Position numbers and translations under genes: made by a program
Source of the DNA: a virus
Lineage: Duplodnaviria; Heunggongvirae; Uroviricota; Caudoviricetes
Direction: 5' to 3' (one strand)
Length of the DNA stretch: 64,000 bases
IMG/VR virus record: IMGVR_UViG_2724679236_000008
In this document: positions 8,275 to 8,971 of the stretch, in pieces
Layout of the letters: each line of letters opens with the position of its first letter
Numbering within the stretch: the first letter of the stretch is position 1
The notes under the pieces: generated by a model
Told to the model about the DNA's origin: nothing
Databases searched by the model: none
Seen by the model: the letters and a program-made list of their open reading frames with translations, nothing else

Positions 8275-8382
8275 TTACTGTTTCCTGAGTGCTTCTATGA
8301 CGCCAGCAATACCGCCTACAACTATGCCAGCAATGACAACGAGAACAATTGGATGCTTGTCAGCAAAATCCCAGAAGCCCAT
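8275..8382 (-). CDS. small hydrophobic protein (35 aa), translationally coupled (TGATG) to the upstream small gene
   Basis: Own translation MGFWDFADKHPIVLVVIAGIVVGGIAGVIEALRKQ; start overlaps upstream stop; below the ORF-track length cutoff. Confidence 0.3.
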   Translation of the reverse strand: MGFWDFADKHPIVLVVIAGIVVGGIAGVIEALRKQ

Positions 8383-8546
8383 CACTGTTCCTTCGAGGCT
8401 GTATTAAATATCGGCCATACCAATGTTACAGCTACTGCTACCAACGCCCCGTCGGATAAAATCGACAGGATTGTGCTGGTGAAATCCACCAGCACAGATA
8501 GCACGAGAAAGACAAAAGCTAGAATTAAACGTGCTTTTATAACCAT
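8370..8546 (-). CDS. small membrane protein (58 aa), start overlaps TerB-like gene stop (TGATG)
   Basis: Own translation MVIKARLILAFVFLVLSVLVDFTSTILSILSDGALVAVAVTLVWPIFNTASKEQ; one clear hydrophobic helix. Confidence 0.3.
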
Positions 8547-8971
8547 CAGATATACTGTTCCAGTGGCAATTGAAGAGCCTGGGCAATTTTCTTCAATTGC
8601 TCCTGTTCTTCAGCCCCAATGCCATCCTGGTCGGCAATATCAATACATAGGCACAGAACATCTACCGCATCATTAGTCCCGGCCACATCAGCCAGCTCAC
8701 GTAAAGCCTGGGCATTAGCTCGGCGCGGCGAGGCTTCATATTGAGCGCGAATATTGGCGCTCATCTGGGCAATTTCACCGGAGAACGGCGCAAAGGCAGG
8801 AAGCGCTGCAATGGTTTTTTCCAATACTGCAATTTCTTTCGCATCGCAGGTGCCGTCAGAGTATGCAATGGAATATGCGCCCCAGACGGTCGCTTCCACC
8901 GCATCACGGTTTTCCATCTTCTTGACTCCGCCAGCCGCTTTGCGGAATTTCTTTTTGAGAATGCCGAGCAT
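8546..8971 (-). CDS. TerB-domain protein (tellurite-resistance TerB-like; P1 TciA-like, 141 aa)
   Basis: AYSDGTCDAKEIAVLEKTIAAL and IADQDGIGAEEQEQLKKIAQAL resemble the two TerB repeats. Confidence 0.55.
   Translation of the reverse strand: MLGILKKKFRKAAGGVKKMENRDAVEATVWGAYSIAYSDGTCDAKEIAVLEKTIAALPAFAPFSGEIAQMSANIRAQYEASPRRANAQALRELADVAGTNDAVDVLCLCIDIADQDGIGAEEQEQLKKIAQALQLPLEQYI

Follow-up and report, generated by a model that had tools for sequence, protein, structure and literature searches.

The three overlapping genes on the minus strand at 8275-8971 of the window (the whole stretch of viral DNA that was analysed, 64,000 nucleotides) correspond, by nucleotide and protein comparison, to the tciA-tciB-tciC cluster of phage P1; because that cluster has been annotated since the P1 genome paper, the locus is already known. 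Comparison with relatives elsewhere indicates that the TerB-like gene (tciA) and the overlapping small membrane-protein gene next to it, usually a DUF3927 gene (tciB in P1), form a mobile two-gene phage cassette, and that tciC is a third gene apparently specific to P1/D6-like elements. The trio is a self-contained, dispensable accessory cassette. As a finding the trio itself adds little, being annotated in P1 and listed as non-essential and variable in later P1 studies; what is added here is the corrected length of 54 aa for the middle product, the conservation of tciC though RefSeq omits it, and the mobile two-gene cassette with its P1-specific third gene.

Layout and identity of the locus

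The trio and the neighbouring features used in the analysis are as follows (positions are those of the window).

8546..8971, minus strand: tciA, 141-aa soluble TerB-family protein (ORF, Pfam, PHROG, profile and AF2 evidence)
8382..8546, minus strand: tciB, 54-aa DUF3927 protein (ORF, junction, Pfam, PHROG and hydropathy evidence)
8275..8382, minus strand: tciC, 35-aa single-pass membrane protein read from an ATG (ORF, PHROG and hydropathy evidence)
8196-8271, minus strand: trnI-type tRNA with a CAU anticodon (ARAGORN; Rfam tRNA, 61.4 bits; tRNA-Ile2 in the P1 annotation)
8972..9135, minus strand: conserved 5' leader of tciA (blastn boundaries; Rfam)
9233-9319, minus strand: atypical tRNA-Ser(UGA)-like gene, 87 nt (ARAGORN, Rfam, D6 annotation, homology)
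10248-10275, strand not applicable: bivalent C1 operator, named Oban a/b in P1 and previously Op72; it overlaps dmt at its 3' end
6544..7914, minus strand: ban, DnaB-type replicative helicase (ORF; P1, SJ46 and pEA4_97 annotations)

The three ORFs lie exactly within 8275-8971, all on the minus strand, and both the tciA/tciB and the tciB/tciC junctions read TGATG, a 1-nt stop/start overlap that implies translational coupling. The initial annotation had described a 141-aa TerB-like ORF followed by hydrophobic ORFs of 58 and 35 aa, each start overlapping the preceding stop, placed between tRNAs in the ban operon. The first and third ORFs were recovered at these lengths, the first passing the Pfam TerB cut-off and the third beginning at an ATG, and the overlaps were seen at both junctions. 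The middle ORF has 54 rather than 58 codons, and no longer in-frame start is available, because the ORF listing already gives the first start after the preceding stop. The placement was also right: a tRNA gene lies on either side, and the C1 operator is found at the end of dmt, as in P1 and P7, so the trio belongs to the ban operon.

A Shine-Dalgarno sequence, GAGG, precedes tciA, and a ribosome-binding site, AAGGA, stands 6-7 nt upstream of the tciC ATG; a GTG one codon upstream of that ATG is an alternative start, from which the product would have 36 aa. Three bases separate the tciC stop from the start of tRNA(CAU). The ban gene is downstream of the trio, and the 454 codons of the P1 annotation would place its start at the ATG at 7908.

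The window is from a P1-like phage-plasmid, and the region 7900-10300 is 99.8% identical to Escherichia albertii plasmid pEA4_97. The trio region showed 96% nucleotide identity to P1 tciA, tciB and tciC, followed by trnI and ban, and the encoded proteins were 99% (TciA), 91% (TciB) and 100% (TciC) identical to those of P1, TciC being 100% identical to P7 Upf69.6 also. The P1 cluster (AF234172, annotation of Lobocka et al. 2004) agrees with the window in its three genes and their order, in both 1-nt overlaps, and in its placing between tRNA genes, with trnI and ban, in the C1-controlled ban operon. This identity with a named cluster was missed by the initial annotation. In P7 the equivalents are named terB-upf69.4-upf69.6, and TciA is of another type, about 30% identical.

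The window differs from P1 in its TciB, a different allele with 5 substitutions, and in its flanks. On the upstream side the flank is P7/D6-like: it has the tRNA-Ser-like gene and, unlike P1, lacks upl/plp. The tRNA-Asn/Thr pair is reduced to a remnant. The 87-nt tRNA-Ser(UGA)-like gene is common to D6 and P7 and absent from P1; its best Rfam match is tRNA-Sec, at 43.1 bits against a gathering score of 47. The tciA leader is common to P1 and, from 8998 upstream, also to P7, whichever tciA allele follows. Within this leader an STnc100-like element (9005-9123) was detected at 36.4 bits, below the Rfam gathering score of 47; it was considered as a general feature of the cassette and set aside, being missing upstream of the cassette in eight other loci.

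The three proteins

TciA is homologous over its full length to TerB, a tellurite-resistance protein. It matched Pfam TerB (PF05099) at 28.1 bits against a cut-off of 24.4 and PHROG 632 over its full length (E=4.6e-62), and a profile built from 76 members of the TciA family matched TerB of PDB entry 2JXU over positions 13-142 of 143 (E=5.7e-14). The family profile was needed for the last result; a single-sequence search of PDB sequences with TciA gave chance EF-hand-like matches only. The AF2 model of TciA has six helices (pLDDT 90.7); its best PDB match by Foldseek was 2H5N, with a probability of 0.99 and TM of 0.52-0.55 but E=0.2, and the model also matched those of phage TerB-like proteins in BFVD. 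TciA is like the TerB of terZABCDE(F) (2JXU, Klebsiella pneumoniae) in size, in its all-helical fold, and in its paired acidic xDGxxxxxE motifs. Between the two TciA types, residues D39, G40, E46, D116, G117 and E122 vary little or not at all, and an ENRD motif and two acidic DG...E motifs are among the invariant or near-invariant columns.

TciA is soluble, with no 19-residue hydropathy window above 1.6. Its residues 1-19 are polybasic (net charge +7) and its helical domain is acidic (net charge -11), and we infer that the N-terminal tail is a possible membrane-binding element. The P7-type TciA gave a partial match to the model of the co-chaperone DjlA; DjlA carries a membrane-anchored TerB-like domain.

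Hydropathy agreed with the earlier description of two tiny hydrophobic products. TciB (GRAVY +1.46) has hydrophobic segments at about residues 5-20 and 33-47, flanking a polar DFTST...SDG stretch; the conserved motif between the segments is VDF[TS]x6Sx3D[GA], and the acidic residues D21 and D32 are invariant. It is a member of Pfam DUF3927 (PF13064; E=7.1e-28, residues 2-54 against model positions 1-53) and also of PHROG 1470. A word-indexed search for TciB homologues found close relatives only, and a scan of genome contigs found 2 loci only; an exhaustive search of 1.84 billion representative proteins returned 28 clusters at E<=1e-3, nearly all of their members 50-80 residues long, so the DUF3927 family is truly small. 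TciC (GRAVY +1.03) has one hydrophobic segment at about residues 11-29, preceded by MGFWDFADKHP and followed by EALRKQ; it matched PHROG 23152 (E=3.4e-27) and no Pfam family. Neither TciB nor TciC matched a holin or antiholin family in Pfam or PHROGs, the only matches being DUF3927, phrog_1470 and phrog_23152. When TciB and TciC were compared with the phage collection by tblastn, P1-like records only were found, and the low-complexity filter probably hides divergent copies. In an AF2 model of a database entry in which TciA and TciB are fused by a frameshift (P0015), TciB formed one long helix at pLDDT 53-71; use of this fusion as a stand-in for a TciA-TciB complex was dropped, given the low-confidence TciB helix and no usable interface.

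Conservation of the trio and spread of the cassette

The three-ORF layout and both 1-nt overlaps were kept in 69 of the 70 P1-like loci that were compared. These loci include two types of TciA, about 30% identical to each other (the P1 type of 141 aa and the P7 type of 144 aa), together with 12 TciB and 10 TciC proteins; the latter fall into two main alleles, 74% identical, each found with either TciA type. Because the layout was kept in 69 loci across divergent TciA, TciB and TciC alleles, the arrangement is more than chance. The TciB core and TciC go with either of the two TciA types, despite their identity of only about 30%, and any interaction with TciA must therefore use very conserved features.

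The allele swap between P1 and P7 covers 8998..8510 of the window, that is, tciA and the first 12 codons of tciB. We examined if the N-terminus of TciB co-varies with the type of TciA, and no type-specific pattern was seen by eye in lambdoid and P2-like contexts. Since no such pattern is found elsewhere, the boundary of the swap is most simply read as a recombination joint in the near-identical tciB core.

Judged at the level of sequence, tciB is certainly coding and tciC very probably so. The dN/dS ratio was 0.02-0.04 for tciA and about 0.3 for tciB, which shows purifying selection. For tciC it was 0.6-0.9, based on just 12-13 differences, which suggests weak purifying selection. Such a high ratio on so few changes could also be expected if tciC were not a gene and its frame had stayed open by chance, in a spacer or leader before the tRNA, and it would fit with this that PGAP/RefSeq never annotates tciC and that tciC was absent from every cassette context examined outside P1/D6-like elements. 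We regard this as quite improbable, since 69 P1-like loci preserve the frame, its 35 codons and its 1-nt overlap with tciB, the divergent alleles, three with that of D6, retain the hydrophobic core and basic C-terminus, a good AAGGA site precedes the ATG, and the product forms a PHROG family. Phage D6 moreover has an unannotated 37-aa TciC, 31% identical, that keeps an FWxxxDKxP motif, the hydrophobic core and the basic tail; its gene overlaps tciB by 4 nt.

Both TciA types have homologues that are frequent in Enterobacterales and reach Pseudomonas. In all nine of the homologues for which contigs were examined, the next gene encodes a small membrane protein and overlaps by 1, 4 or 8 nt; this partner is DUF3927 in every contig except the Pseudomonas prophage, where it is an unrelated 67-aa protein with one TM segment. 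The elements that carry the pair are unrelated temperate phages, and its surroundings vary. In lambdoid prophages it lies between the holin genes and an antiterminator gene, Q or another, and in a Nissabacter phage-like plasmid directly ahead of holin and lysozyme genes. P2/186-like prophages carry it in the early operon, after cox/cII/fil and before methylases and gpA; in SSU5-like elements (about 106 kb) it is near a Tad2-like gene, in a further E. coli element near Dam and RNase H, and in Rahnella and Pseudomonas prophages a cI-like repressor gene precedes it. The same pair was also found in a viral contig and an Aeromonadaceae MAG. When the window was compared with lambdoid copies, nucleotide similarity started and stopped at the tciA ORF. 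Trio-related sequences were present in 674 of 5,426 complete E. coli genomes (about 12%), with the full trio in 170 of those.

Expression and possible function

The two parts of the C1 operator, which are inverted and overlap, differ from ATTGCTCTAATAAATTT at 0 and 2 positions, and their location agrees with the P1 and P7 annotations; the operator is the predicted control point of the ban operon that contains the trio, which lies downstream of this C1-operated Pban site. A terminator-like hairpin lies at 10066-10085, between the operator and the tRNAs. A crude consensus scan, which may have missed a promoter active in lysogens, predicted no sigma-70-like promoter across 7800-10400, nor in the 300 nt ahead of tciA; in 13 of 14 other contexts it likewise found none for the cassette. 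This is weak negative evidence. The ban gene is C1-repressed in P1 lysogens. Because of the operator pair and the lack of a predicted promoter of its own, the trio is probably expressed early after induction or infection, in the lytic phase. Expression contexts differ between phages (early, late, or near cI), so timing gives no single answer for the cassette as a whole. Transcripts of tciA, tciB and tciC have been seen, and change, during P1vir infection (bioRxiv 10.64898/2025.12.28.696737). All three genes were non-essential in a genome-wide P1 CRISPRi screen (PMC10695390), and tciABC is one of eight highly variable regions of P1-like phage-plasmids, being absent from nearly half of subgroup 1 (PMC9603915). 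The literature searched contained no functional experiment on any Tci protein, and no tellurite MIC, colicin or phage assay data for the tci genes.

On balance, and with moderate confidence, we favour a membrane-tethered TerB complex that is made in the lytic phase by the P1-like cassette and acts at the inner membrane. Early in lytic growth, lifting of C1 repression would lead to coupled synthesis of TciA, TciB and TciC; TciB would insert in the inner membrane, in P1-like phages with the help of TciC; the two would hold cytoplasmic TciA against that membrane, perhaps assisted by the polybasic tail of TciA; and the complex would alter or monitor the state of the inner membrane to the benefit of the developing phage. 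This model is preferred because the TerB of the ter cluster is reported to interact with TerC, a membrane protein (PMC11003894, citing Turkovicova 2016), because TerB proteins are described in the literature as membrane-associated or amphitropic, and because of the partial match between the P7-type TciA and DjlA.

As to the phenotype of such a complex, exclusion of superinfecting phage DNA or of pore-forming colicins is the favoured candidate, tentatively held. T4 Imm and Sp, P22 SieA and P1 Sim, which exclude superinfection, are small, early, non-essential inner-membrane proteins of a resident or developing phage, and TciB and TciC would be like them in this. To our knowledge none of them has homology to a Tci protein, and none has a TerB-type soluble partner. 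Protection from membrane, oxidative or metal stress is a less likely phenotype, an anti-defence mimic of host TerB systems somewhat less likely again, and an effect on the timing of lysis or cell division the least likely of those named; the remaining share goes to something else.

A bolder and rather doubtful version of the model is that the TerB-like and DUF3927 genes, joined by tciC in P1-like phages, are a widely mobile cassette for conflict among phages or with the host. Their products would build a minimal membrane-tethered TerB complex, either as a lytic-phase device that excludes superinfection or colicins or as a decoy that disarms TerB defences. The targets named for such a decoy are Dionysus, Bunzi and Shango, host TerB-based 'membrane surveillance' defences. 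If true, a stand-alone TerB protein, and DUF3927 with it, would gain a defined function for the first time. We know of no defined biochemical function for TerB despite decades of work on the ter operon. TerB now appears in several anti-phage systems, and tciABC is a tractable case: P1, the best known of the E. coli phages, offers TerB in the simplest setting known, accompanied by just one or two tiny membrane proteins dedicated to it, and a tciABC phenotype would give DUF3927 a function and provide a minimal model of how TerB acts at the membrane.

The initial annotation had called the trio stress- or abortive-infection-like, which is no more than partly supported. A prophage defence in which TciA senses an incoming phage at the membrane, and TciB and TciC as membrane-damaging effectors stop the lysogen, is unlikely though the best of the alternatives. 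TerB-domain proteins are encoded together with membrane or pore-forming proteins in the validated defence systems Dionysus (DinA/DinB/DinC), Bunzi and Shango, for which 'membrane surveillance' has been proposed, just as TciA is encoded with TciB and TciC. The cassette also occupies classic accessory slots, and in the Rahnella and Pseudomonas phages it follows cI-like repressors; the region is variable in P1-like elements, and in RCS47-type phages the slot is held by another membrane module with an SPFH/Band_7 gene. The likeness to known defences has limits, as the partners in those systems are large (a MAEBL+TM protein, a 4-TM pore-forming toxin, a helicase/ATPase) and those of the trio are tiny hairpin proteins, and as Dionysus, Bunzi and Shango are host-encoded whereas the trio is in phage lytic operons. 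TciA, TciB and TciC had no match at E<=1 in PADLOC-DB 2.0, which includes Bunzi and Shango and predates Dionysus; the P7-type TciA gave a weak partial match there to a candidate family. The predicted expression also tells against this reading: the trio is in the C1-repressed ban operon with no predicted promoter, and a lysogen probably would not express it. The place of the cassette is an early lytic operon in P2/186-like phages and the slot between antiterminator and lysis genes in lambdoid ones. Lytic rather than lysogenic expression is a poor fit to a prophage abortive-infection system, and no terC, terD or terE is present in the operon.

In a different reading, the trio would regulate the timing of lysis or cell division, the small membrane proteins targeting holins or the divisome and TciA modulating this from the cytoplasm. 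Three different holin/endolysin cassettes have the cassette directly upstream of them, in 186-like prophages it comes after fil, a gene for a division inhibitor, the P1 operon includes a dicF-like region, and TciB and TciC are the size of holins. The interval between antiterminator and holin genes is, however, a general slot for accessory genes, and lysis genes are not adjacent to the cassette in P1, P2-like or SSU5-like elements. Together with the failure of TciB and TciC to match a Pfam or PHROG holin family, and with the absence of a plating defect upon CRISPRi knock-down (PMC10695390), this makes the reading improbable.

That the trio is a miniature tellurite- or colicin-resistance determinant working like terZABCDE, as the gene names used in the P1, SJ46 and RefSeq annotations suggest and as the full-length homology of TciA to TerB might allow, is very unlikely, for those names were assigned in P1 explicitly 'by homology' (GenBank annotation notes), the smallest ter construct described in PMC11003894 is terBCDEF, no terC, terD, terE, terZ or terA is in the operon and none of terC or terD/terE/terZ lies within about 3 kb of the trio (the neighbours being tRNAs, ban, a dbn-like gene and dmt), and in other phages too the cassette occurs without ter genes. 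The preferred membrane-tethered complex would share with the ter cluster a TerB protein and a membrane partner; the partner in the ter cluster is the multi-pass TerC, and here there are a 54-aa DUF3927 protein and a 35-aa protein, which are phage-borne and under predicted phage repressor control.

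Annotation of tciC and fused Tci proteins

The third gene of the tciABC trio, tciC, was found outside the window as an unannotated reading frame in the related phage D6, overlapping the 3' end of D6 tciB by 4 nt.

D6 locus L003, about 3181-3294, minus strand: tciC homologue, 37 aa (MMDFWTYIDKNPGW...)

In the RefSeq records examined, NCBI PGAP called the TerB-family and DUF3927 genes only and never annotated tciC, so that a conserved 35-codon gene is absent from the RefSeq P1-like plasmids. Public protein sets also hold a 196-aa TciA-TciB "fusion" and a 90-aa TciB-TciC "fusion" (protein records P0015 and P0003); both resemble products of a single-base frameshift at a TGATG stop/start junction and are most likely assembly errors.

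Further C1 operator matches; hairpin and leader upstream of the trio

Downstream of the C1 operator pair, at a distance of about 160 nt, a hairpin separates Pban, the C1-operated site, from the tRNA, tci and ban genes.

Window 10066-10085, minus strand: terminator-like element, a GC hairpin and then a T-run
Window 659-675, 13781-13797, 28937-28953, 30596-30612, 57908-57924 and 61758-61774: further C1 operator matches
Window 9005-9123, minus strand: STnc100-like sequence, scoring below the threshold of this Rfam sRNA family

The hairpin corresponds roughly in position to the "dicF-like" annotation of P1, and the Rfam DicF model gave no match to this region at E<=0.1. Each of the six additional sites differs from the 17-bp consensus of the C1 operator at 1-3 positions, where 0.34 matches would be expected by chance over the whole window. 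The sites fit a C1 regulon dispersed through the genome, as in P1-like phages. The STnc100-like stretch lies inside a conserved leader immediately 5' of tciA, and this leader is retained in P1 and P7 irrespective of the tciA allele downstream; the stretch scored 36.4 bits against a gathering score of 47 and covered model positions 31-147 of 206. No such leader was found 5' of the cassette in 8 other phage contexts.

tRNA genes upstream of the trio

Two tRNA features in the window were compared with those of the related phages.

Window 9531-9590, minus strand: hybrid tRNA-Asn/tRNA-Thr remnant, about 55 nt
Window 9233-9319, minus strand: atypical 87-nt tRNA, called Ser(UGA) by ARAGORN

In P1 and P7 tRNA-Asn and tRNA-Thr are adjacent; in the window they are reduced to the single hybrid remnant, at which ARAGORN predicted no tRNA, and the endpoints of the joining deletion are the words CAGCGGTT(A/C)GA common to both tRNAs. 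In Rfam the 87-nt tRNA matched tRNA-Sec best, at 43.1 bits and so short of the gathering score of 47. D6 and P7 share this tRNA and P1 lacks it; the D6 copy is annotated "AA not called by tRNAscan-SE".

Other cargo, and tRNA neighbours beyond P1

In RCS47-type P1-like phages (also matches H16-H20) an SPFH/Band_7 gene replaces tciABC between upl and trnI, so that one membrane-associated cargo stands in place of another. The TerB-like/DUF3927 cassette adjoins tRNA genes in non-P1 elements too.

RCS47 locus L096, 1696-2523: gene for a 275-aa SPFH/Band_7 protein (Pfam E=1e-30)
Lambdoid prophage locus L077, 3118-3424: four tRNAs upstream of the cassette
Nissabacter phage-like plasmid locus L081, 3867-3939: one tRNA directly upstream of the cassette
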